IMG/VR virus record: IMGVR_UViG_3300017917_001112
Location: 101,257 to 165,256 of that record
Source of the DNA: a virus
Strand: one strand, 5' to 3'
Length of the DNA stretch: 64,000 bases
Part shown: positions 3,301 through 36,646 of the stretch, piece after piece
Layout of the letters: each line of letters begins with the position of its first letter
How positions within the stretch are numbered: position 1 is the first letter of the stretch
Translations under genes and position numbers: made by a program
The notes under the pieces: generated by a model
What the model was told of the DNA's origin: nothing
Seen by the model: only the letters and a program-made list of their open reading frames with translations
Databases searched by the model: none

Positions 3301-3347
3301 GATTATACATATTAATGTACCCATTTGAATTGAAGGAGAACCAACAA

Positions 3348-4007
3348 ATGAAACTATCTAAAGACACACAAAATTTACTTAAGAACTTTGCATCTATCAA
3401 CTTGAATTTGCTTTTGCGTGAGGGAAACAAACTCTCAACTATGAGCGAAAACAAAACAATCATTTCTGAAGTTACTGTTGCTGAACAGTTTCCGCAGAAT
3501 TTTGGAATCTATGATGTAAATGAATTTTTGGCTGTGTTGACATTGTTTAATGATCCCGATTTGGCATTCAGTAATGATGTTGTAACTGTCAAAGAAGGCA
3601 AGAATCAAATCGTTTACAAAGCAGCAGAAGAAAGCACTTTGAAAACACCAAGTAAGTCTATTCAATTCCCAGAAGCAGAGATTAATTTCTCACTGTCTGC
3701 TGCGGATCTAGAACACATTATCAAATCAGCAGGTATTCTTAAAGTTTCTGACGTATCATTTATCGGCAGAGATGGTAAGTTAGTTGCTCTGGTCATCGAT
3801 AAGAAAAATCCTCTAACAAATAAATTTGAAATTGATGTTGGCACAACAGATAAAACATTCCAAGCAAACATGAAAATTGAGAATTTTAAGATGTTGCCTG
3901 GATCGTATAATGTATCCATCGCAAAAATGAAAATCTGTCGTTTCAAATCAACAACCAATGATTTAACATATTACGTAGCAGTAGAATCTGATTCAACAGC
4001 TGAGTAA
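3348..4007 (+). CDS. 45: sliding clamp gp45
   Basis: MKLSKDTQNLLKNFASIN, FGIYDVNEFL, YYVAVE; position in 45-44-62-regA cluster. Confidence 0.93.
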   Translation: MKLSKDTQNLLKNFASINLNLLLREGNKLSTMSENKTIISEVTVAEQFPQNFGIYDVNEFLAVLTLFNDPDLAFSNDVVTVKEGKNQIVYKAAEESTLKTPSKSIQFPEAEINFSLSAADLEHIIKSAGILKVSDVSFIGRDGKLVALVIDKKNPLTNKFEIDVGTTDKTFQANMKIENFKMLPGSYNVSIAKMKICRFKSTTNDLTYYVAVESDSTAE

Positions 4008-4023
4008 TTGAAGGGATTATATT

Positions 4024-4965
4024 ATGAGTCGTGATGAATTTTTATGGTGCGAGAAGTATCGCCCAAAAACTATCGATGAATGTGTTCTTCCGCAACAACT
4101 GAAGGATACTTTTAAAGAATATATAAAGAACGGACAACTTCCAAATTTTATTTTTTCTGGAAGCGCAGGTGTTGGTAAAACAACAGTTGCACGTGCATTG
4201 TGTAATGAACTTGGAGCAGATTATCTTTTTATCAACGGATCGGAAGAGAGAGGTATCGATGTATTACGAACAAAAATTAAAAGTTTTGCCTCGTCTGTTA
4301 GTCTCACAGAGGCAGGAGCAAAAGTCGTCATCCTTGATGAAGCCGACTATCTCACGCCAGACACACAAGCAGCCCTGCGTGCTTTTATCGAAGAGTTTTC
4401 CAACAACTGTAGATTCATCCTTACCTGCAACTTCAAAAACAGAATCATCACTCCACTCCACAGTCGATGCTCAGTAGTTGAGTTTCGTATTGAGTCGGCT
4501 GAGAAACCTAAGATTGCTGCGAATTTCTTTCGCAGGATTGTAGATATTCTCAACGCAGAGAGTGTTGAATCTGATAATAAAGTTGTAGCGAAAGTTGTTG
4601 AGACATTCTTTCCAGACTTCCGTAGAGTTCTAAACGAACTTCAGCGTTATTCTGTTGGTGGTCGTATCGACACAGGTATCTTAGCAAATCTTTCTGATGA
4701 ATCCATGAAAGAATTACTCGGTTATCTAAAATCCAAAGATTTTATGAAAGCAAGACTGTGGGTTGCAAAGAACAATGATATTGAGACATCTGTATTGTTC
4801 CGTAGACTTTATGACACAGCAGCAGATTTTCTTGAACAATCGTCTATTCCAGTTTTAATTTTAACTCTGGCAGATTATCAGTACAAGGCAGCATTTGTGG
4901 CTGATGTCGAGGTTAATAATGTTGCTGCGTTGATGGAGATTATTGCTAATTGTAAATTCAAGTGA
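4024..4965 (+). CDS. 44: clamp loader large subunit gp44
   Basis: LWCEKYRP, GSAGVGKTT, ILDEAD, SRC motif. Confidence 0.95.
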   Translation: MSRDEFLWCEKYRPKTIDECVLPQQLKDTFKEYIKNGQLPNFIFSGSAGVGKTTVARALCNELGADYLFINGSEERGIDVLRTKIKSFASSVSLTEAGAKVVILDEADYLTPDTQAALRAFIEEFSNNCRFILTCNFKNRIITPLHSRCSVVEFRIESAEKPKIAANFFRRIVDILNAESVESDNKVVAKVVETFFPDFRRVLNELQRYSVGGRIDTGILANLSDESMKELLGYLKSKDFMKARLWVAKNNDIETSVLFRRLYDTAADFLEQSSIPVLILTLADYQYKAAFVADVEVNNVAALMEIIANCKFK

Positions 4966-4972
4966 GGTTTAT

Positions 4973-5356
4973 ATGACACCATTTGATTTTATTAATTCCA
5001 TCAATCAAACAAAAGATGCTAACATAATTAAGGAACCACAGGCTGAGAAAGACTACAAAGCATTCATTATTAACAGGGGTCTAGCATACTTCCCAGACAC
5101 TGTTTTACAAGCCAACGAAATGAATCGTCGTCCATGGACTCCAAGGGACTGGCAATTTTCGTTTTTGCTAAATAGTATTACCAAGAAAAAACGATTCAGT
5201 AAATGGGCTGAAAAACTGCCCAAGAACGAAGACTTGGACTTGGTTATGCAATACTATGATTATAGTAAACAAAAAGCAATGGCTGTTCTGAACTTATTGA
5301 CACCAGAGCAGTTGGCTATGATAAAACAAAAATTCGAAAAAGGTGGAAGACTATGA
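4973..5356 (+). CDS. 62: clamp loader small subunit gp62
   Basis: FIINRGLAYFPDTV..ANEMN, KKKRFSKW; synteny. Confidence 0.9.
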   Translation: MTPFDFINSINQTKDANIIKEPQAEKDYKAFIINRGLAYFPDTVLQANEMNRRPWTPRDWQFSFLLNSITKKKRFSKWAEKLPKNEDLDLVMQYYDYSKQKAMAVLNLLTPEQLAMIKQKFEKGGRL

Positions 5357-5778
5357 CAGTTGAAACAGTCTACTATGATTGGACTCCAGAAAGTATGCTC
5401 GAGGTGATACTCCCAGAACCAGATAACTTTCTAAAAATTAAAGAAACATTAACACGTATTGGTATTGCTTCACGCAAAGAGCATAAACTTTACCAATCGT
5501 GTCACATTTTGCACAAACAAGGCAGATATTTTATTGTGCATTTTAAAGAATTGTTCGCATTAGATGGAAAAGAATCTAACTTAACGAACAATGACATTGA
5601 GAGACGTAACACAGTTGCTGTGTTGTTGCAGGATTGGGGTTTGTTAAAAATTGCTAGTGCTGCTGCAGCAGAACCTCAAGCATCTTTATCTCAAATTAAG
5701 GTATTGTCCTTCAAAGAGAAAGATGAGTGGGAGCTTGTTCCGAAATATAATATCGGAAAAAAAGGTAGAATCAAGTAA
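5353..5778 (+). CDS. regA: translational repressor RegA
   Basis: FLKIKETLTRIGIAS, LYQSCHILHKQGRYFIVHFKELF. Confidence 0.96.
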   Translation: MTVETVYYDWTPESMLEVILPEPDNFLKIKETLTRIGIASRKEHKLYQSCHILHKQGRYFIVHFKELFALDGKESNLTNNDIERRNTVAVLLQDWGLLKIASAAAAEPQASLSQIKVLSFKEKDEWELVPKYNIGKKGRIK

Positions 5779-10576: not shown

Positions 10577-13084
10577 ATGGAATTTTACACAAATGTTTTT
10601 CCCATGGGCAACAAGTTATGCGTCCGTGGGTACAGCAATGGTTTGCCGTACAAAGATAAGATAGATTTTCGCCCAACCCTTTACGTCTCGTCACCAAAGA
10701 AACATTATAGTGGCGAGATTTTTCGCACATTAGATGGTCAAGTTCTTTACGAAATCCAACCTGGATCTATCAAAGACACACGTGAATTTATTGATCGATA
10801 TAAGGGTGTTGAAAGTTTCCCTGTTTATGGTAACACAAATTACGCATACCAATATATCTCGGACACATATCGCTCAGAAATTAAATTTGATAAAGATTTA
10901 ATTAAGTGTTTCTCCATTGATATCGAAACAGCAACAGAAAGTGGTTTCCCTGATATTGAAACTGCTAATGAAGAGGTATTGTTAATTACATTAATGGACA
11001 ATAAGACAAAAGAGATTCATACTTTTGGTCGTAGTCCTTACACAGGAAACAAGGAAGTTATTTTCCATCATGTTGAAAATGAAAAACAACTTCTCGTTGA
11101 GTTTCTAACATTCTGGAAAGATAATTGTCCAGACATCGTTACTGGTTGGAATATTGGTTTCTTTGATATTCCATATCTAGTTAGACGCATCATGGTTTTG
11201 CTTGGCGAGTCACATGCAAAACAACTATCACCATGGGGTATTATCAACGAACGTCGTATTCATGTTAAAGGTAATGAAGAGATTACGTACGACATTGCTG
11301 GTGTTTCTGCACTTGATTATATTGATTTATACAAAAAGTTTACTTACTCAATGCAAGAATCTTATCGTCTTGATCACATTGCATTTGTTGAACTTGGCGA
11401 AAACAAACTAGACTATTCTGAGTATGATTCATTTAAAGATTTTTATACTCATGGTTGGAAGAAGTTTGTTGATTACAACATTCACGATACTGTTCTTGTT
11501 GACAAACTTGAAGACAAGATGAAATTGATTGAGTTGGCTATCGTTATGGCATATAACGCAAAGGTAAATTTCGATGATGTGTTTTCACAGGTAAGAATGT
11601 GGGATACGATTATCTACAATCACTTGCGTTCCAAAAACATTGTTATCCCAAACAAAACTAACAATGAGAAAGACAATGTTATTGAAGGTGCTTATGTTAA
11701 AGACCCACTTACTGGATTTCACAAGTGGGTTGTCTCATTTGACTTGAACAGTCTTTATCCGCATTTAATTATGCAGTATAACATTTCACCAGAGACTTTA
11801 ATCCAAGATTACAAACATATTGGTGGTGTTGGGTATTTCTTAGAACATGAGGAGCAAGGTGGATTTAAAGATCTAGATTATGCTTGTACAGCGAATGGTT
11901 ATTGCTATCGCAAAGACATCAAAGGATTTCTGCCTGAACTGATGGAAAAAATGTATGCTGACCGAAGTAAAGCAAAGAAACAAATGCTTGCGATTCAACA
12001 GCAGTATGAGAACACCAAGGACGCATCGCTAAAGAATGAGATTTCAAGATTGAACAATTTGCAGATGGCTTTGAAGATTGCTTTGAACTCTGCTTATGGT
12101 GCGTTGGCTAATCAATATTTCCGTTATTATGATAAACGCATGTCTGAGGGAATTACGACTTCTGGTCAGTTGTCTATTCGTTGGATCGCAAATAAATTTA
12201 ACGAATATTTTAACAAAGTAATGGGAACTGAGAAAGAAGATTATGTGATTGCTGTTGACACAGATTCTGTCTATCTTAGATTTGGACCATTGGTTGATTC
12301 TTTGTTTAGTCAGGAAGAACAGAAAGACAAAGATAAGATTGTTAAGTTTATTGACAAAATCTGTGAGGATAAAATACAGAAGTACATTGATAAGTGTTAT
12401 TCTGAATTGGCAAAGCGTCAAAATGCTTATGATCAGAAAATGATTATGAAGCGTGAAGTTATCGCAGACATGGGAATTTGGACTGCTAAAAAACGCTATG
12501 TTCTCAATGTGCATAACTCTGAAGGTGTGCAATATGCGCAACCCAAGATGAAGATTATGGGTCTTGAGATGGTTAAGTCTTCAACACCAATTGTTGTTCG
12601 CGACAAGTTGAAGGAAGCATTGAAGATTGTGATTGCTGGCGATCAACTAGAACTGCGTAAGTTTATCACTGATTATCGTAAACATTTCTATTCGTTGCCT
12701 GTTGAAGAAGTTGCTTTCCCAAGAAGTGTGAACAATCTTAAGGAATATTATGACTCTACTACCATTTATCGTAAATCGACACCGATTCATGTCCGTGGTG
12801 CTTTGATGTTTAATCATATTATCAAAGAAAGAAATCTTACGAACAAATATCAGCCAATTAAAGAGGGTGACAGAATTAAATTTATCTATCTTCGTGAGCC
12901 GAACACTATTCGTGAAGATGTAATTACATTCGCAAATGAATTACCAAAAGAGTTTGACCTACATAAATACATAGATTATGAGAAGCAGTTTGAGAAAGTT
13001 TTCCTTGACCCATTAACCGCAATTATGGATTCTATCGGATGGACAGTTGAAGAAAAGAACACTCTTGAAGATTTCTTCGCATAA
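10577..13084 (+). CDS. 43: DNA polymerase gp43 (family B)
   Basis: DIET exonuclease motif, SFDLNSLYP, KIALNSAYG, DTDS; C-terminal LEDFFA. Confidence 0.98.
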   Translation: MEFYTNVFPMGNKLCVRGYSNGLPYKDKIDFRPTLYVSSPKKHYSGEIFRTLDGQVLYEIQPGSIKDTREFIDRYKGVESFPVYGNTNYAYQYISDTYRSEIKFDKDLIKCFSIDIETATESGFPDIETANEEVLLITLMDNKTKEIHTFGRSPYTGNKEVIFHHVENEKQLLVEFLTFWKDNCPDIVTGWNIGFFDIPYLVRRIMVLLGESHAKQLSPWGIINERRIHVKGNEEITYDIAGVSALDYIDLYKKFTYSMQESYRLDHIAFVELGENKLDYSEYDSFKDFYTHGWKKFVDYNIHDTVLVDKLEDKMKLIELAIVMAYNAKVNFDDVFSQVRMWDTIIYNHLRSKNIVIPNKTNNEKDNVIEGAYVKDPLTGFHKWVVSFDLNSLYPHLIMQYNISPETLIQDYKHIGGVGYFLEHEEQGGFKDLDYACTANGYCYRKDIKGFLPELMEKMYADRSKAKKQMLAIQQQYENTKDASLKNEISRLNNLQMALKIALNSAYGALANQYFRYYDKRMSEGITTSGQLSIRWIANKFNEYFNKVMGTEKEDYVIAVDTDSVYLRFGPLVDSLFSQEEQKDKDKIVKFIDKICEDKIQKYIDKCYSELAKRQNAYDQKMIMKREVIADMGIWTAKKRYVLNVHNSEGVQYAQPKMKIMGLEMVKSSTPIVVRDKLKEALKIVIAGDQLELRKFITDYRKHFYSLPVEEVAFPRSVNNLKEYYDSTTIYRKSTPIHVRGALMFNHIIKERNLTNKYQPIKEGDRIKFIYLREPNTIREDVITFANELPKEFDLHKYIDYEKQFEKVFLDPLTAIMDSIGWTVEEKNTLEDFFA

Positions 13085-13088
13085 AAAC

Positions 13089-13117
13089 TTGCCTTTAAAT
13101 ACGACATATACTAAAAT
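13089..13117 (+). promoter_or_regulatory. sigma70-type promoter variant
   Basis: TTGCCT-17-TAAAAT. Confidence 0.55.
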
Positions 13118-13142
13118 TATATTAGAACACTAGGAGAAAGAC

Positions 13143-13388
13143 ATGACACAAGAAAATGAATTTCCGTCAATCGAAGACGTAGAAATTAAAACAACATCAT
13201 TGAACAACTTGCCCCCAAAAGTAATTTGTGAAAAACATGGAGAACTTAATGACGCATATGTGTTTAGAGTAAACATGCCAGAGTTTGGATATGAAAAAAA
13301 AACATATTGTTTAGTATGCGCAATCGAGTATCTTTCTATGATTGCTAATGAGGTTACATTCGAAGAACGTGAGGGAGAAACAAAATGA
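13143..13388 (+). CDS. hypothetical protein (possible Zn-binding)
   Basis: CEKH...CLVC; AGGAG SD. Confidence 0.65.
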   Translation: MTQENEFPSIEDVEIKTTSLNNLPPKVICEKHGELNDAYVFRVNMPEFGYEKKTYCLVCAIEYLSMIANEVTFEEREGETK

Positions 13389-14443
13389 GTTTTCTAAAAG
13401 ATATTGTAAAGGAGCTTGATAATGAATATGCGGGACTGGCTGATGATGGTGTTGTTGGTGATACATCTAATTTTATCGACACTGGTTCTTATACCCTTAA
13501 TGCTTTGCTCTCTGGTAGCATCTTTGGTGGTCTACCTGGGAACAAAGTTACAGCTTTGGCTGGTGAGTCTTCCACAGGAAAGACATTCTATGCTCTTGGG
13601 ATTGCGAACAATTTTCTTCGAACTGACGACAAGGCTGGAGTCATTTACTTTGAAACAGAAGGAGCGTTGACTAAAGATATGCTCGCTGAGCGTGGCATTG
13701 ATACTAAACGATTTATGATTGTTCCTGTGTCAACTGTTCAAGAATTTAGAACTCAAGCATCTAAGATTCTAGATGCGTATGAAAAAACATCAAAGAAAGA
13801 TCGCCCACCATTGATGTTGTTTTTAGATTCTCTTGGTATGCTCTCTACTTCTAAAGAAATGGAAGATACACTTGAGGGTAAAGATACTCGTGATATGACT
13901 CGTGCTCAATTGATTCGTGGCGCATTCCGTGTTCTTTCATTGCGTCTTGCTAAACTCGATGTCGCTATGGTTGTTACGAATCACACATATGCAGTTGTTG
14001 GTGCTTATATGCCAACCAAAACTATGGGTGGTGGTGACGGATTAAAGTATGCTGCTTCAACGATTGTTTTTCTTTCTAAGTCTCAGGACAAAGATGGAAC
14101 TGAAGTTGTTGGTAATATCATTAAATGTAAACTTGAGAAATCTCGTTTTACACGTGAGAAGTCTATGGTTGAAACTAAACTTTCCTTTACTAAAGGATTA
14201 GATCGTTATCATGGTCTAGCAGATTTGGCTGTTGAAGCAGGAATCTGGAAATCGCAAGGTGGACGAATTGAAGTACATGATGGTAGAAAAGTTTTCGGTA
14301 AAAACATTGCAAACAATCCTTCTGACTTCTTCACCGAAGACATCCTAAAGCAACTTGACATTTACTGTAAATCAAAGTATAATTATGGTTCAGATGATGT
14401 TGTTCAACAAGAAGAAGTAGAGGAAGAATTTAATGAGAATTGA
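13385..14443 (+). CDS. uvsX: RecA-like recombinase UvsX
   Basis: GESSTGKT, DSLGML, DMTRAQ, NHTY, GGG.GLKYAAS. Confidence 0.95.
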   Translation: MSFLKDIVKELDNEYAGLADDGVVGDTSNFIDTGSYTLNALLSGSIFGGLPGNKVTALAGESSTGKTFYALGIANNFLRTDDKAGVIYFETEGALTKDMLAERGIDTKRFMIVPVSTVQEFRTQASKILDAYEKTSKKDRPPLMLFLDSLGMLSTSKEMEDTLEGKDTRDMTRAQLIRGAFRVLSLRLAKLDVAMVVTNHTYAVVGAYMPTKTMGGGDGLKYAASTIVFLSKSQDKDGTEVVGNIIKCKLEKSRFTREKSMVETKLSFTKGLDRYHGLADLAVEAGIWKSQGGRIEVHDGRKVFGKNIANNPSDFFTEDILKQLDIYCKSKYNYGSDDVVQQEEVEEEFNEN

Positions 14444-15815
14444 AAATCAAATTTTTACTAATTTGATAACTCAGGAAGCGTATGCAAGAAAGGTTATTCC
14501 TTTTTTACTTCCTGAGTATTTCATGGATCGTAGCGATCGTGTGATTTATGAGGAATATAACAAATTCTTTTCGCAGTACAACACAACTCCAACTGTTGAT
14601 GTGCTGAAGATTGAGATTAGCAACAGAAAAGATATTTCTGAAGAAGAAGTAAAAAAAGTTAACGAAACACTTGATACTCTTAGCGATGAACAAACTAATA
14701 TTGATTGGATAACAGACAGCACAGAGAAATTTTGTAAAGACAAGGCAGTTTACAATGCTATCATCAACTCTATCAAAATTATTGAGGGCAGGGATAAAAA
14801 TCACAACCAAGATGCGATACCTTCTCTACTTTCTAAAGCATTGGCTGTTACTTTTGATTCTCACGTGGGTCATGACTATTTGGAAGACAGTGATGCTCGC
14901 TATGATTTTTATCATAGGGTTGAAGAGAAAATTCCTTTCGATATTGACTTGCTCAACAAAATCACGAACGGAGGACTCTCAAAGAAAACTCTAAACATTA
15001 TTCTTGCAGGAACAGGTGTTGGTAAATCTTTGGCTATGTGTCATTTCGCAGCATCATCTTTGCTTCAGGGTAAAAATGTGTTATACATAACTATGGAGAT
15101 GGCTGAGGAGAGAATCGCAGAGCGTATTGATGCCAATTTGCTAGAGTTGACTATGGATTCTTTAAAGATGGTTGAGAAACGTGTTTTCGATGCTAGACTT
15201 GAAAAGATTCGCAATAAAACACATGGTAAGTTGATTGTTAAAGAATATCCTACTGCTTCTGCCCACGCAGGACACTTCCGTGCTTTAATTGAAGAACTGC
15301 GTATGAAGCGTGATTTTACACCTGATATTATTTTTATTGATTATCTTAATATCTGTTCTTCTCAGCGTCTTCGTATGGGAGCAAATGTAAACTCTTATAC
15401 ATATATTAAAGCGATTGCTGAAGAGTTGAGAGGATTGGCAGGTGAATATAAAGTGCCTTTGGTGAGCGCAACGCAAACTACTCGTTCTGGTTATGCTAAC
15501 ACAGATCCAGGACTTGAAGATACTTCAGAGTCATTTGGTCTGCCAGCAACAGCAGATTTGATGATTGCGTTGATTGCCACTGAAGAACTTGATCAAATGA
15601 ATCAGATTATGGTTAAACAATTGAAAAATCGTTATTCTGATCCAAACTTCTATAAGCGTTTTGTTGTTGGCGTTGATAGAAAACAAATGAGATTATACAA
15701 TGTTGAAATGAGTGCTCAACTACATATAGAGGGACAGGGAACTGTTTCTGATGATACGCCACTATTTGACGCAACGAAATTTGGCAAACGCATTAAGAGT
15801 GAAGCATTCGAATAA
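14433..15815 (+). CDS. 41: replicative helicase gp41
   Basis: AGTGVGKS, ITMEMAEE, IDYLNI, SESFGLPATAD, KQLKNRY. Confidence 0.96.
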   Translation: MRIENQIFTNLITQEAYARKVIPFLLPEYFMDRSDRVIYEEYNKFFSQYNTTPTVDVLKIEISNRKDISEEEVKKVNETLDTLSDEQTNIDWITDSTEKFCKDKAVYNAIINSIKIIEGRDKNHNQDAIPSLLSKALAVTFDSHVGHDYLEDSDARYDFYHRVEEKIPFDIDLLNKITNGGLSKKTLNIILAGTGVGKSLAMCHFAASSLLQGKNVLYITMEMAEERIAERIDANLLELTMDSLKMVEKRVFDARLEKIRNKTHGKLIVKEYPTASAHAGHFRALIEELRMKRDFTPDIIFIDYLNICSSQRLRMGANVNSYTYIKAIAEELRGLAGEYKVPLVSATQTTRSGYANTDPGLEDTSESFGLPATADLMIALIATEELDQMNQIMVKQLKNRYSDPNFYKRFVVGVDRKQMRLYNVEMSAQLHIEGQGTVSDDTPLFDATKFGKRIKSEAFE

Positions 15816-15825
15816 GGAGAAAAAA

Positions 15826-17187
15826 ATGGTTCAGGTTATTGTAGCAGACAAACTTTATGATTCAGAACATCTACTTGGTATGTTCGTTGACGAATCGCAT
15901 TATGATATTCTTATTGAAGAAGATACGGATTGTTATCTCCCAGCTGATTGCGATATCGCAACACAAGCGAATTGTGATAAAGATTGTTCTGCTTGTGATA
16001 TTGGAGCCGATGAGCGTAGAATAGCATTTAAGTTTAGAAAGAACTTCTTCTCAAAAGAAGAACAAGAACAAGCATATGTTGGTTTGCGTGAAGCAGCAGT
16101 TCGTACAGAAAATCGTGGATTGGCTTCAGGAATTAAAGCAGGAACATCAGTAACAGGCGAAGGACGTGAGTGGGTTACTAATTATCAAGAAGAAATGATT
16201 AATGGAATTCTATCCTCAAGAACTGCTCAGTTGGTTGATGGGGATATTATTTTAGAAATTCGAGAAAAATATCCAACACCAGAATCACGTTTGAAAGCAT
16301 TGGGTTCTGGTAAGAACAATGTTTGGGTTATCTCACGTTTCCGTGGTAAATTTAATTTTGATGAATGGGTTGATTCAATCATTCCTTTAGATCGCGAAGC
16401 AAGAGCAAAAGCAACTGAAGAAGTTATGACAATGATTAGCGAAACTTCTTATGGCAATCCAGTTGACTCAGGTATCGCAGGTTGGTTTGACAGATATCCA
16501 CGTATTCCTTATGGTAGAGCAACAACATATACAAGAGATAATCCAGAAAAATTTGCTATGGCGTACCCATTTCTACAACATTTGGCAAAAGGATTTAAGG
16601 AGTTACTACCACAAAGATATGCTGCGCAAAAAGCAGCAACAGATAAAATTGATCCAAGATTCGTAATTCCTGAGACACCATTTACTACTGTAACTGTTAA
16701 CAAAACATTTAGAACTGCAGCGCATCGCGATGCTGGTGACTTTTCTGATGGTCTATCTAATTTGCTTACACTTTCTAATGATGGTAGATATACTGGTGGT
16801 TATTTGATTTTTCCAGAGATTCGTATAGCAGTTAATGTACGACCAGGAGATTTGCTTCTTGTGAATAACCATGAGGTAATTCATGGAAACACACCGATTG
16901 TTTGTGAAGAAGGTTCTGAGCGTGTTTCGCTGGTTGTTTATCTTCGTGAAAACATGTTAGAACTTGGTTCTTATGAATATGAAAATTCAAGATTCGAATT
17001 TGTTGAGTCACGCAGATTGAACAAAGAACATCCACTTTGGAAAAAATTGTGGAATGGTGTTTCTCCAGGAATGTGGGAAGAACAAGAATGGTACGACTTT
17101 TTAAAATCACGTCCGAATGGCGAACAAATGCTTGCGAAGTATCACCCGAAAGCACTTGAAGCATCTCTAGATGAATTCTTTGCTTGA
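15826..17187 (+). CDS. TET/JBP-family 2OG-Fe(II) methylpyrimidine dioxygenase
   Basis: FTTVTVNKTFRTAAHRDAGD (HxD), GGYLIFPE, GDLLL..NHEVIHGNT (distal His), ERVSLVVYLRE (2OG Arg); C-terminal LDEFFA. Confidence 0.82.
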   Translation: MVQVIVADKLYDSEHLLGMFVDESHYDILIEEDTDCYLPADCDIATQANCDKDCSACDIGADERRIAFKFRKNFFSKEEQEQAYVGLREAAVRTENRGLASGIKAGTSVTGEGREWVTNYQEEMINGILSSRTAQLVDGDIILEIREKYPTPESRLKALGSGKNNVWVISRFRGKFNFDEWVDSIIPLDREARAKATEEVMTMISETSYGNPVDSGIAGWFDRYPRIPYGRATTYTRDNPEKFAMAYPFLQHLAKGFKELLPQRYAAQKAATDKIDPRFVIPETPFTTVTVNKTFRTAAHRDAGDFSDGLSNLLTLSNDGRYTGGYLIFPEIRIAVNVRPGDLLLVNNHEVIHGNTPIVCEEGSERVSLVVYLRENMLELGSYEYENSRFEFVESRRLNKEHPLWKKLWNGVSPGMWEEQEWYDFLKSRPNGEQMLAKYHPKALEASLDEFFA

Positions 17188-17212
17188 CATTAATCTATAT
17201 ACATAGTAAAAT
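17184..17212 (+). promoter_or_regulatory. sigma70-type promoter
   Basis: TTGACA-17-TAAAAT. Confidence 0.65.
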
Positions 17213-17231
17213 ATAGTTTTGGAGATTTAAT

Positions 17232-18065
17232 ATGGCATGGCAATCAAGTTATTGGTCTTGTTCTAAATTTGCTGATTGGCTTCGTGGAACACCGAAGCCA
17301 GAAGCAGAAACAAGTAAAGGATGGCGTCTTTGGAGAGAAGCATCTGAGAAAGAACATCCATTTCGTTTTTGGTTGGCGGAAGAAGGACTTGATCACATTC
17401 AGGACTTCGTAACTTATCCAAGCAGAAAAGTAAACGATTTAATGTATTATTTGAATAATCGGTTTGTTACTAAAACGCATGCACTAACATCTCACCCTCG
17501 TGATATTCCTCGTGGCGAATGGCGAGATGTTGGTAATCGTTTTCTCCCCTGCCTGTTCAATGAACTTGTTGATTTTGTCGAGGTCGAACAAGCATGGCAT
17601 CACTGTATGTGGGATGACAAAGCACGAAAAGAATTTAAAGTGCCTTGGACACGCAGGGGTTTTTTACGTCTTAGAACTTGGCGTTGTCCAGAAGCAGGGT
17701 TGTCTTATCTGAATTGGGCAAAGGATTTGACTAATGCTGAGTTTCTTGATGAAGATAAGAAACATGAAGCAGAGTTGACACATCAAGCACTTGCTGCTCG
17801 CGAGATTCTAGAACTCTATCACTGGTGGAAAGAAGTTTATTCAAAACGTCTAGATCCATACGATTCTAGTGGTTGGTCTGCTATTTGCGAGAGAGAACGC
17901 AAAGAAGGACGTGACTTACTTGACATGGAAGACAGAAACGAAACAGAGCGTGAAGAGAGAAATAATTCTCTAGATCTTCTACGTAAAATAGAAGAAGAAT
18001 ACGAAAAGGAAGACGAAGAAATGATGATTCGTCTTATCAAAATCCGTCAATCACTGTGGACTTAA
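17232..18065 (+). CDS. conserved hypothetical Trp-rich protein
   Basis: 277-aa ORF with GGAG SD. Confidence 0.75.
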   Translation: MAWQSSYWSCSKFADWLRGTPKPEAETSKGWRLWREASEKEHPFRFWLAEEGLDHIQDFVTYPSRKVNDLMYYLNNRFVTKTHALTSHPRDIPRGEWRDVGNRFLPCLFNELVDFVEVEQAWHHCMWDDKARKEFKVPWTRRGFLRLRTWRCPEAGLSYLNWAKDLTNAEFLDEDKKHEAELTHQALAAREILELYHWWKEVYSKRLDPYDSSGWSAICERERKEGRDLLDMEDRNETEREERNNSLDLLRKIEEEYEKEDEEMMIRLIKIRQSLWT

Positions 18066-18069
18066 ACAT

Positions 18070-19413
18070 ATGAAAATCTTAATGGTAATGCATACCTTCA
18101 ATAACTTTGGAGGAATTATCAATCACTGCGAACATTTAATGGCAGGATTAAAAGAAATTGGTCACGAAGTAAATTTCGCATATCTTAAAGGCAACTCTAC
18201 TGTAAGACCAGTTGAAATTCCTTCTAAACTTGCCGAAGGTTATGAGATTGGTATTGGTTCAGGTTATCCAGTGCACCAAGGTGATGGATGGATTGCGCCA
18301 TACTATTCTTACAAAGTAAAAGAATCTGTTGACAAATTTGTTAAGACTGCCAATGAGCATGATATTGTGATTTGGCAGTCTATTTTTGGATTTAAAAACA
18401 AAGACACTGAGAAATACAAGGGTTGGTTGCCAATGGTTGAACAAGTCAAGGCAAAACAAGTTGTAATTATTCACGATGCTAATCTTAAAAAATTATATCC
18501 ATGGATTTCTCTTTATGAAAAACATTTCGCTGGTCTTGCTTGCGTTCATCCTGCAGCATACGATTCAGCAGACTTTATGTCCACACCTCGAGCGTTAATT
18601 TTGAACCCTCAGGATATTGATGGCGTACCACCTACTCCAGAGTTTGCTGGTCGCGAAAACAAAATCTTGTCAATACAGACATTCAAACGCTGGAAGCGTG
18701 TGGACGACCTTATTCGTGCTGTTCCTTACATGAAAAATGTCAAGACATTGGTAGGTGGTTATGGTATTGAGGCAGCATATATGATGTCGAAAGACAAGTG
18801 TAAAGACGAATACTTCGCAACAACACAATATGATCCAGACGTAACACCTGACCGAGAAGGAAAGCGTATTTGGGAAAACGCTGAAAACTCAGGAAATTTT
18901 GAATATCTCGGTTTTATTTCTGGAGCGAAACGTGATGAGATTCTACAAACATCTAAGTTTTTGGTTGACCCTTCTTGGAGCAATACTTTTGGTGAGCACT
19001 TCAATCGTGTTGTCGTGGATGCAATGCGGATTGGGACTGTGCCCATTGCTGTAAATTTTGGTGTTTCCAACAACGAAGAAGGTAATGGAGTTTTGTTGAA
19101 GGCTGGTGAACACTATTGTATGCTCCGCAAGGATTTTACTCCAAAACAATATGGAGAAGCAATCGCTAACTTCTGTAATATGAGCGAATCCGACTACAAA
19201 CGTATTCAGCTAAATAACTACGAACTAATCAAAAAGTTTGATCGAAAGGTAGTTGCTCAGCACTATATCGACTTGGCTATGGGTAAGGAAACAGGTTATC
19301 TAAACGAACTCAGAACCAAGACGAACCATGATCCATCTATTGTCCGAAATTCCATTAAAATGTTCGAAGAACACTTCGAACAGGCATCAGACTTGGACGA
19401 ATTCTTCGCATAA
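18070..19413 (+). CDS. GT-B fold glycosyltransferase, putative DNA-modifying
   Basis: MKILMV..FGGI..H, GHEV, IIHD, KRWKRVDDLIRA, EHFNRVVVDAMRIGTVPI; C-terminal LDEFFA. Confidence 0.8.
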   Translation: MKILMVMHTFNNFGGIINHCEHLMAGLKEIGHEVNFAYLKGNSTVRPVEIPSKLAEGYEIGIGSGYPVHQGDGWIAPYYSYKVKESVDKFVKTANEHDIVIWQSIFGFKNKDTEKYKGWLPMVEQVKAKQVVIIHDANLKKLYPWISLYEKHFAGLACVHPAAYDSADFMSTPRALILNPQDIDGVPPTPEFAGRENKILSIQTFKRWKRVDDLIRAVPYMKNVKTLVGGYGIEAAYMMSKDKCKDEYFATTQYDPDVTPDREGKRIWENAENSGNFEYLGFISGAKRDEILQTSKFLVDPSWSNTFGEHFNRVVVDAMRIGTVPIAVNFGVSNNEEGNGVLLKAGEHYCMLRKDFTPKQYGEAIANFCNMSESDYKRIQLNNYELIKKFDRKVVAQHYIDLAMGKETGYLNELRTKTNHDPSIVRNSIKMFEEHFEQASDLDEFFA

Positions 19414-19418
19414 ATGTC

Positions 19419-19447
19419 TTGACATCGAACACCTTTTAGGGTATAAT
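19419..19447 (+). promoter_or_regulatory. sigma70-type promoter
   Basis: TTGACA-17-TATAAT. Confidence 0.85.
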
Positions 19448-35848: not shown

Positions 35849-35979
35849 ATAACACTGGTACAGATAAAGATGAGTATTATGACATATTATCAACTGAAGA
35901 ATGTTTAAAAGATAGTATGCACTTAGAAAAACCCACTGAAGAAATTATAGAAAAAATGGGAGAAGATGATGAAAGTTGA
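35833..35979 (+). CDS. possible small acidic protein (48 aa)
   Basis: ORF fills the primase-thyX gap. Confidence 0.3.
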   Translation: MEKDLDNTGTDKDEYYDILSTEECLKDSMHLEKPTEEIIEKMGEDDES

Positions 35980-36646
35980 ATTGATTAGTTATTCACAACC
36001 AGCAGAATATTTTGCTGAGAATATGACAGAACTTGTTGCTTTCTGCGCACGTGTTAGTAATCCAGGAAATCAAACAAACAAAGAGACAAGTGAAAAGTTA
36101 ATCAAGTATTTGATTAAGAATCAACATTGGTCGCCACTTGAAATGGTAAATGTTTGTTTAGAAATTGAAACTACACGTGATATTGCTAGACAGATGTTGC
36201 GTCATCGTTCGTTTTCTTTTCAAGAGTTTTCGCAGCGTTACGCTGACCCAACACAAGATTTAGATTTTGTCATTCGTGAGGCAAGACTTCAAGATACAAA
36301 AAATCGTCAAAACAGTATTGAGATATCTATTGAAGATGATGACAATAGACGTCTGGCATATCAGTGGGAACAGATGCAAAAGAATGTTATTGAAAAAGCA
36401 AAAGAAGCATATACATGGGCAGTTGAGCATGGTATCGCAAAAGAACAAGCCAGAGCAGTTTTGCCAGAAGGCAACACAGTAAGTCGTTTGTATATGAATG
36501 GAACATTAAGATCTTGGATTCACTATATACAATTACGATCAGGCAATGGCACACAAAAAGAACACATTGAGATTGCAAAGGCATGCGCCAAGGTAATCGC
36601 TACAGTTTTTCCTCTATCAAAAGAATTTATCGCACAGGAGCAATAA
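35966..36646 (+). CDS. thyX: flavin-dependent thymidylate synthase
   Basis: HWSPLE, RHRSFSFQEFSQRY, LRS.NGTQKEH. Confidence 0.95.
   Translation: MMKVELISYSQPAEYFAENMTELVAFCARVSNPGNQTNKETSEKLIKYLIKNQHWSPLEMVNVCLEIETTRDIARQMLRHRSFSFQEFSQRYADPTQDLDFVIREARLQDTKNRQNSIEISIEDDDNRRLAYQWEQMQKNVIEKAKEAYTWAVEHGIAKEQARAVLPEGNTVSRLYMNGTLRSWIHYIQLRSGNGTQKEHIEIAKACAKVIATVFPLSKEFIAQEQ

Follow-up and report, generated by a model that had tools for sequence, protein, structure and literature searches.

The stretch of viral DNA considered here (IMG/VR virus record IMGVR_UViG_3300017917_001112, positions 101,257 to 165,256; hereafter the window) is the final 64 kb of the 165,256-bp genome of a T4-like phage. 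Two enzymes of its replication cluster, a long-form TET/JBP dioxygenase and a GT-B glycosyltransferase, end in seven residues that closely resemble the C-terminus of the DNA polymerase gp43. Based on sequence comparison, we consider it probable that these residues are a motif with the clamp-binding role of the gp43 tail, and that the phage DNA is chemically masked by enzymes docked on the sliding clamp soon after its replication. The genome is rated complete and has direct terminal repeats. Positions are those of the window unless marked as genome, and the proteome comprises 218 called proteins with 53,488 residues.

Three C-terminal tails in one replication cluster

The T4-type replication cluster lies on the plus strand and encodes, in this order, gp45, gp44, gp62, RegA, gp43, UvsX, gp41, the TET/JBP enzyme, the product of an open reading frame (ORF) at 17232-18065, and the GT-B enzyme (Table 1). 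Re-reading of the sequence returned exactly the tails and coordinates given by a first-pass annotation of the window, namely TLEDFFA for gp43, SLDEFFA for the TET/JBP enzyme and DLDEFFA for the GT-B enzyme. The annotation had also claimed that no other ORF ends in this way; none further was found in the window or in the whole genome. The protein identities it had assigned (polymerase, TET/JBP, GT-B and gp45) were likewise confirmed by Pfam and PHROGs.

The pattern L[DE][DE]FF occurs three times in the proteome, always in the five residues just before the terminal one of gp43, TET or GT-B. By expectation it should occur 0.14 times anywhere in the proteome, L[DE][DE]FFA at a C-terminus only 4e-5 times, and the probability of at least three C-terminal matches is approximately 1e-14. 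The tails are written in different codons (CTT GAA GAT TTC TTC GCA in gp43, CTA GAT GAA TTC TTT GCT in TET and TTG GAC GAA TTC TTC GCA in GT-B), and the DNA 3' of the three stop codons is unrelated among the genes. These differences rule out a DNA repeat or terminator artefact at the gene ends and indicate that selection acts on the peptide rather than on a DNA element. Since the tail is in addition kept in hundreds of homologs, the probability that the resemblance arose by chance, or from a DNA element repeated at the ends of genes, is negligible.

A looser pattern, requiring only an end in FF, also catches a gp51-like baseplate protein (PF12322; genome 24723-25433, minus strand), which ends in G[IL]x[DSN]FF here as well as in Stenotrophomonas phage DLP6, phage C48C1 (OQ984149) and Caulobacter phage Cr30. 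This candidate was rejected as a clamp tail; the PF12322 profile extends to the final residue and the FF end is therefore a feature of the family.

The connection to the clamp comes from the polymerase. The C-terminal peptide of T4 and RB69 gp43 binds the sliding clamp gp45, and the last 199 residues of the gp43 described here align end to end with RB69 gp43, placing '..EKNTLEDFFA' opposite '..EKKASLFDMF'. The candidate docking partner, a gp45 homolog, matches the RB69 (1b77/1b8h) and T4 (1czd) clamps with E-values of approximately 1e-29; 1b8h is the RB69 clamp-peptide structure. The ORF of this gp45 opens at 3315, yet its homology begins at 3348. As read from the T4 record, T4 gp43 ends in ..EEKASLDFLFG and the late sigma factor gp55 in ..SPSLDFLYEAND (SLDFLYEAND). 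The gp55 of the present phage (genome 83814-84374) ends in NNLESFLGDENGS, which is of the same motif type (NLESFLGDENGS). Because its relation to the polymerase tail is the same as in T4, gp55 serves as an internal positive control. The motif of gp55 and gp33 has been described as a clamp-binding one that is carried on a linker and binds a hydrophobic patch of gp45 (PMC7892883).

The tail of the dioxygenase has the physical characteristics of such a motif. Between the conserved YHPxA and the motif lies a region that varies in sequence and in length (6-12 residues), and in an AF2 model with a mean pLDDT of 85 the last approximately 13 residues fall to 65 and then to 48. The tail is thus predicted to lie outside the fold, as expected of a docking peptide on a flexible linker. 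Like the motifs of T4/RB69 gp43, gp55 and gp33, the tails are short hydrophobic or aromatic peptides at the extreme C-terminus, set on a flexible linker, in a phage that encodes gp45 and gp44/62 nearby. They differ in that the known carriers are replication and transcription factors, whereas the carriers here are DNA base-modifying enzymes for which clamp binding is predicted.

Alternatively, the shared tail could dock the polymerase and the enzymes onto another partner in the replication factory, such as gp32, a helicase loader or a scaffold. In the gp32 homologs found here, in C48C1 and in Cr30, the C-terminus is conserved, acidic and contains D[LM]S[YF]F, short aromatic peptides are present in several replisome proteins, and the tail variants within one genome differ, all of which would be compatible with such a partner. 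However, by position the gp43 tail is the homolog of the RB69/T4 gp43 peptide, whose partner is gp45. Furthermore, gp55, a known clamp client, bears the same motif type (PMC7892883). On this evidence a partner other than gp45 appears quite unlikely, and gp45 is retained as the predicted docking site. The gp32 homologs, whose ends are of the ..EEDDLSYFQKLANE type, are located at genome 20616-21584 in this phage, 112190-113137 in C48C1 and 137797-138750 in Cr30.

Tails in homologs and in distant phages

A survey of tail conservation among homologs, which the first-pass annotation had proposed as a check, found the tail kept in the TET, GT-B and gp43 families. Using motif-anchored profiles, the motif was present in 171/180 long-form TET, 132/135 GT-B and 22/22 gp43 sequences. 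The three families share nearly one profile, [STD]-L-[ED]-[EDS]-F-F-x(0-1)-end, with no more than one residue after the FF pair in 170/171 TET and 132/132 GT sequences. Nearly all of the 120 closest TET clusters (68-98% identity) retain the tail, and among 50%-identity cluster representatives it is still seen at approximately 40% identity. Another count of GT-B homologs gave 116 of 120 with the tail, and taken together the TET and GT homologs conserve it to identities as low as about 40%.

The family survey covered 80 IMG/VR loci around TET homologs, from which 1,326 ORFs were clustered. Counted as unique sequences, the tail was found in 52/55 TET, 22/22 gp43 and 18/19 GT-B proteins. Polymerases and modification enzymes together carried it in 106 of 123 unique sequences versus 6 of 836 others, although homolog counts of this kind are phylogenetically non-independent and the significance of the survey is only indicative. 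In the same loci no tail was found in the helicase (0/28) or UvsX (0/24) sequences, nor in approximately thirty other families.

The real argument is the number of unrelated folds rather than the number of homologs. Judged from the sequences, at least eight unrelated enzyme folds, all of them DNA-acting, have each acquired the tail on their own. Additional carriers in related loci are amino-acid:DNA transferases (ADDT; PF18724, with ends of the G-L-E-x-[FL]-x type such as ..GLEALW and ..GLEKFFT), TET-associated glycosyltransferases (TAGT; PF20691) and a GNAT acetyltransferase. TAGT ends in ..LSSFFN in DLP6, in ..DLSKLF in Cr30 and in ..TLESFFG in locus L089. The pattern recurs in the cultured relatives DLP6, Cr30 and C48C1. 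In DLP6 the accompanying gp43 ends in ..TLDSFFA and the TET in ..TLGDFFV; the Cr30 counterparts end in ..DLSSLFD and ..GATLF. Phage C48C1 has gp43 ..TLEDFFG and TET ..SLEEFFV together with a D12 Dam methylase ending in ..TLDAFFG.

This last enzyme is a D12-class N6-adenine methyltransferase (L005:3995-4879), encoded directly after gp43 (..ATLEDFFG) and ending in ..ESTLDAFFG; by its tail it would be a clamp-tethered Dam. GNATs encoded beside TET and ADDT genes (L085:12014-12655, L095:3485-4156 and L081:3254-3895) end in ..SLEEFLV, which hints that a group borne by the DNA is acetylated. A 563-aa nucleotidyltransferase fusion adjoins the TET of DLP6 (L001:7274-8965), and in C48C1 a UDP-galactopyranose mutase homolog (L003:11375-12385) lies two genes downstream of TET. 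These proteins suggest lineage-specific sugar donors, and neither has the tail, as expected since such enzymes do not touch DNA.

Short-form TET/JBP representatives (approximately 300 aa) are mostly without the tail. Many of them end instead in [KR]xxG[DET]P[LI][YWF] (GDPLY, GTPLFD, GEPLY), as observed in P0135, P0166, P0190, P0210, P0218, P0231, P0244, P0247, P0256 and others. Such an end may serve for docking onto a different partner. ParB-dependent 5mYOXs (phage TET/JBP dioxygenases) have been reported to carry an essential C-terminal extension (PMC13229309). A myovirus contig with T4-type structural genes (Logan SRR10915314, L150:10001-13090) has three consecutive genes for a long-form TET, an ADDT and a P-loop kinase 3; these share no tail, and the replication module of the contig looks different (965-aa Toprim protein).

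The strongest test, one of covariation, was provided by ADDT homologs from distant phages. In Escherichia phage CBA120 gp43 ends in ..RRVNLLSMMGKKG (VNLLSMMGKKG) and the ADDT in ..KSVNLMTLLKR. In Vibrio phage D533 gp43 ends in ..KEKKARKLW, the ADDT in ..KAVKTRKLW, HMUDK_hel (PF18723) in ..KKKSTKRLW and 5-hmdU DNA kinase 2 (HMUD2; PF18747) in ..LAKTKKLW. Each phage therefore has its own tail type, VNL[LM][ST][ML][ML] in CBA120 and K[KR]LW in D533, present on the polymerase as well as on the hypermodification enzymes, and both phages have gp45 homologs. The negative controls, a small sample of three phages, consisted of mycobacteriophage VioletZ and Glutamicibacter phage Montesquieu, with no gp43 or gp45 match and with unrelated ADDT ends, and Synechococcus phage S-CBWM1, also with no gp43 or gp45 match and with a TET homolog that lacks the tail. 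That three quite different tails each match their own polymerase is hard to explain unless all of them bind one co-evolving partner. With regard to charge complementarity between clamp and tail, the net charge of gp45 is -23 in D533, where the tails are basic, -4 in the present phage and -13 in C48C1, both with acidic tails.

Small phrog_4789 proteins also carry the polymerase tail, a 99-aa protein of D533 (L141:17591-17890) ending in ..KTKRLW and a 70-aa protein of CBA120 (L131:9731-9943, minus strand) ending in ..VNLLSLMSK. They may represent a gp33-like clamp client.

The same data bear on whether the tail could be a signal that sets when early enzymes are degraded or turned over, and could be common to these proteins because all of them are early. 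A hydrophobic C-terminus that ends in Ala can act as a protease tag, and all three genes belong to the early replication cluster behind sigma-70-like promoters. However, UvsX, gp41, gp44, gp62, RegA and gp59 are also early replication proteins and are without the tail, as are all the helicase and UvsX sequences counted above. The tail, moreover, differs wholly between lineages yet matches the polymerase, a correspondence that host proteases would not require. We regard a turnover signal as very improbable.

The claim that the tails are docking peptides of the gp43/gp45 type is thus supported by comparative tests (conservation, unrelated folds and tracking of the polymerase tail), with binding itself as the predicted step. 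The wider generalization is a clamp-client code in gp45-clamp phages, in which base-modifying enzymes would be recruited by tails that mimic, and co-evolve with, the polymerase's own. Besides TET/JBP, GT-B, TAGT, ADDT and 5-hmdU DNA kinases, the enzymes concerned would extend to a GNAT and even to a Dam methylase. We lean slightly towards this generalization.

The modification enzymes and their predicted pathway

The TET/JBP enzyme matches PF12851 with 83.4 bits (cut-off 34.9; 1.4e-23). Its longest ORF opens at 15751, but the N-termini of homologs favour 15826. The iron triad H300, D302 and H353 is invariant in 33 sequences, and a Foldseek search with the AF2 model returned CcTet (8jkk), NgTET1 (4lt5/5cg9), CMD1 and TET2 as top matches (E approximately 1e-10). 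The dioxygenase is intact in its catalytic residues and, by the model, in its fold, and is a predicted DNA-base oxidase. The GT-B enzyme matches PF00534 with 38.9 bits (cut-off 26.4; 8e-10) and PF13692 with 27.1 bits (cut-off 27), and its gene adjoins TET in related loci. Its acceptor is presumed to be DNA rather than a glycolipid or cell-wall precursor, based on the adjacency to TET, the shared tail and the published DNA GT-Bs.

The protein encoded between the two enzymes (17232-18065) has no Pfam or PHROG match and no named atlas cluster, and its AF2 model is poor (pLDDT 60). At least 11 related loci encode it in the corresponding place, with many invariant W, R and D residues, and it may act in the pathway as an accessory factor. 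Near-perfect or perfect TTGACA-17-TATAAT promoter-like sites, identified as consensus matches only, precede gp41 (14355-14383), the 17232 ORF (17184-17212, overlapping the TET stop codon) and the gene after GT-B (19419-19447). Such sigma-70-like sites suggest co-expression of the modification and replication genes.

The first-pass annotation had claimed hydroxylation of 5-methylpyrimidines followed by glycosylation. The enzyme families stand, as assigned by Pfam, and the substrate is refined by gene content to thymine rather than 5-methylcytosine (5mC). The complete genome contains no C5-cytosine methyltransferase (PF00145) and no ThyA-type enzyme (PF00303). ThyX is present, so the phage makes dTMP and has thymine in its DNA. 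Together these features make thymine the likely substrate, and a pathway from thymine through 5-hydroxymethyluracil (5hmU) to glycosyl-5hmU is likely as judged from the gene complement. Phage 5mYOXs without a neighbouring C5-methyltransferase have been shown to be T-dioxygenases acting post-replicatively (PMC13229309), and GT-A and GT-B enzymes encoded beside 5mYOX genes glycosylate DNA (bioRxiv 10.1101/2023.12.21.572611).

The tails could bind the clamp and the substrate nevertheless be 5mC, oxidised to 5-hydroxymethylcytosine and then glycosylated, or another non-thymine base. The best structural matches are indeed 5mC dioxygenases (CcTet, NgTET1 and TET2), and certain phage 5mYOXs accept T as well as 5mC (PMC13229309). 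This possibility is unlikely given the gene content described above, which includes ThyX and lacks both a C5-methyltransferase and any ThyA-type dCMP/dUMP-modifying enzyme, and given that related loci pair the same TET with ADDTs of the thymidine hypermodification pathway (PMC8989533). No ADDT, TAGT, GNAT or 5-hmdU kinase was found in the present genome.

With thymine as the preferred substrate, the proposed mechanism would proceed as follows. The gp44/62 loader would place gp45 trimers, each with three pockets, at primer-template junctions of replicating phage DNA, and clamps would be left behind on completed DNA. The dioxygenase would dock through its flexible tail, slide with the clamp and oxidise thymine to 5hmU; the glycosyltransferase would dock likewise and add a sugar to the new hydroxyl, yielding a base-J-like nucleotide. 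Tethering would make the reactions fast and processive and would limit them to DNA bearing phage clamps. We infer gp45 binding, the thymine substrate, the identity of the sugar and the timing at the fork. The first-pass statements that modification is restricted to phage DNA and occurs right behind the fork are plausible.

Table 1 Features of the replication cluster and associated genes in the window
Feature	Position	Strand	Evidence or remark
gp45-type sliding clamp	3348..4007	+	Pfam gp45-slide_C, DNA_PPF; phrog_223; candidate docking partner
gp44 clamp loader	4024..4965	+	phrog_168 at 3e-119; Gp44_lid
gp62 clamp loader	4943..5356	+	phrog_225 at 6e-39
RegA	5353..5778	+	
gp43 family-B DNA polymerase	10577..13084	+	DNA_pol_B and exonuclease domain; phrog_262
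gp43 tail TLEDFFA	13061..13081	+	presumed clamp-binding motif; aligned to RB69 gp43 end
UvsX recombinase	13385..14443	+	Pfam, PHROGs; no tail
gp41 helicase	14433..15815	+	Pfam, PHROGs; no tail
Long-form TET/JBP (5mYOX) dioxygenase	15826..17187	+	PF12851; phrog_24024; N-terminal domain of ~200 aa and DSBH catalytic domain
TET tail SLDEFFA	17164..17184	+	follows variable linker after conserved YHPxA
Conserved 277-aa Trp-rich all-helical protein between TET and GT-B	17232..18065	+	no tail
GT-B (GT1/GT4-type) glycosyltransferase, presumed DNA glycosyltransferase	18070..19413	+	PF00534, PF13692
GT-B tail DLDEFFA	19390..19410	+	last 7 residues
ThyX thymidylate synthase	35966..36646	+	PF02511 at 1e-44; phrog_85

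Precedents and significance

The phage pathways that combine a 5mYOX with glycosyltransferases (PMC8256090; PMC13229309; bioRxiv 10.1101/2023.12.21.572611) share enzyme families and neighbourhood logic with the system described here. The present TET differs from the published phage 5mYOXs in being of the long form, with an extra N-terminal domain of approximately 200 aa, and in having no ParB partner. Those three reports mention polymerase, helicase and gp45/clamp genes as neighbours only, and we found no mention of clamp-binding tails in them. Within an incomplete coverage of the literature, we found no paper on polymerase-like tails of TET, GT, ADDT or kinase enzymes. Earlier publications already cover the chemistry as well as the gene neighbourhoods.

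The ViI/CBA120-type enzymes (5-hmdU DNA kinases and ADDTs; PMC8989533) resemble the present ones in acting on 5hmU in polymer DNA, and the hypermodification enzymes of CBA120 and D533 resemble them in ending in the tail of their own polymerase. They differ in the tails themselves (VNLLSMM and K[KR]LW) and in that their 5hmU is supplied pre-replicatively. A eukaryotic parallel is provided by PIP-box clients of PCNA such as DNMT1, in which a DNA-modifying enzyme is brought to new DNA through a clamp-binding linear motif. The motif and the clamp lineage are unrelated, and DNMT1 performs maintenance methylation rather than protective hypermodification.

The nearest functional precedent is T4 alpha-GT, a phage DNA glycosyltransferase tied to the clamp and proposed to modify alongside replication. 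Its co-purification with gp45 goes back to Sommer 2004, as cited and re-tested in PMC13216743. Alpha-GT differs from the present enzyme in its C-terminus (..KEQFDIITK), in its family and in its substrate, hydroxymethylcytosine that was incorporated pre-replicatively. The Pfam matches of the present GT-B include no alpha-GT family, and the analogy is functional only.

Several observations weigh against the proposed clamp docking. The contact between T4 alpha-GT and gp45 was judged not to be the main determinant of the share of glucosylation (PMC13216743), and clamp docking may therefore matter less than modelled here. In the T4 record neither alpha-GT, beta-GT nor Dam has a polymerase-like tail, which is perhaps also the reason why the rule was overlooked. 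Some long-form TETs are without the tail (P0136, P0140 and that of S-CBWM1), of which P0136 and P0140 speak neither for nor against the model, and the homolog counts carry the non-independence noted above. The gp33 homolog (genome 18743-19006) ends in ..ELNYFPKQATLDV, a loose match only, and was not counted as support. Lastly, the tails of the L099 phage are mismatched (gp43 ..SLEDFFS, TET ..TLENMFA and ADDT ..GLEALW). With FF on the polymerase, MF on the TET and LW on the ADDT, the aromatic positions need not agree within one phage, and strict covariation was not found inside the clade to which the phage described here belongs; the convincing covariation is that of the distant lineages. A search for gp43 in contigs with LF- or MF-type TET tails gave fragments or no match; L099 and L075 (other TET tail types) yielded gp43.

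Why phages hypermodify their DNA only after replication 'remains a mystery' (PMC13229309), and how enzymes acting after synthesis find and fully cover the phage DNA ahead of host nucleases is an open problem. The polymerase-like tail offers a concrete answer, namely recruitment to the clamps on new phage DNA. It also provides a sequence rule for spotting DNA-acting phage enzymes among proteins that end like the polymerase, a rule that has flagged a GNAT and a Dam methylase, and phage TETs and DNA glycosyltransferases might gain processivity in vitro when supplied with their own clamp and loader. If the clamp-client code is true, the clamp, being loaded on replicating phage DNA only, would serve post-replicative hypermodification as a self-marker as well as a processivity factor, which would explain how such pathways protect DNA fast enough. 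The parallel with PCNA-bound DNMT1 would represent convergent logic.

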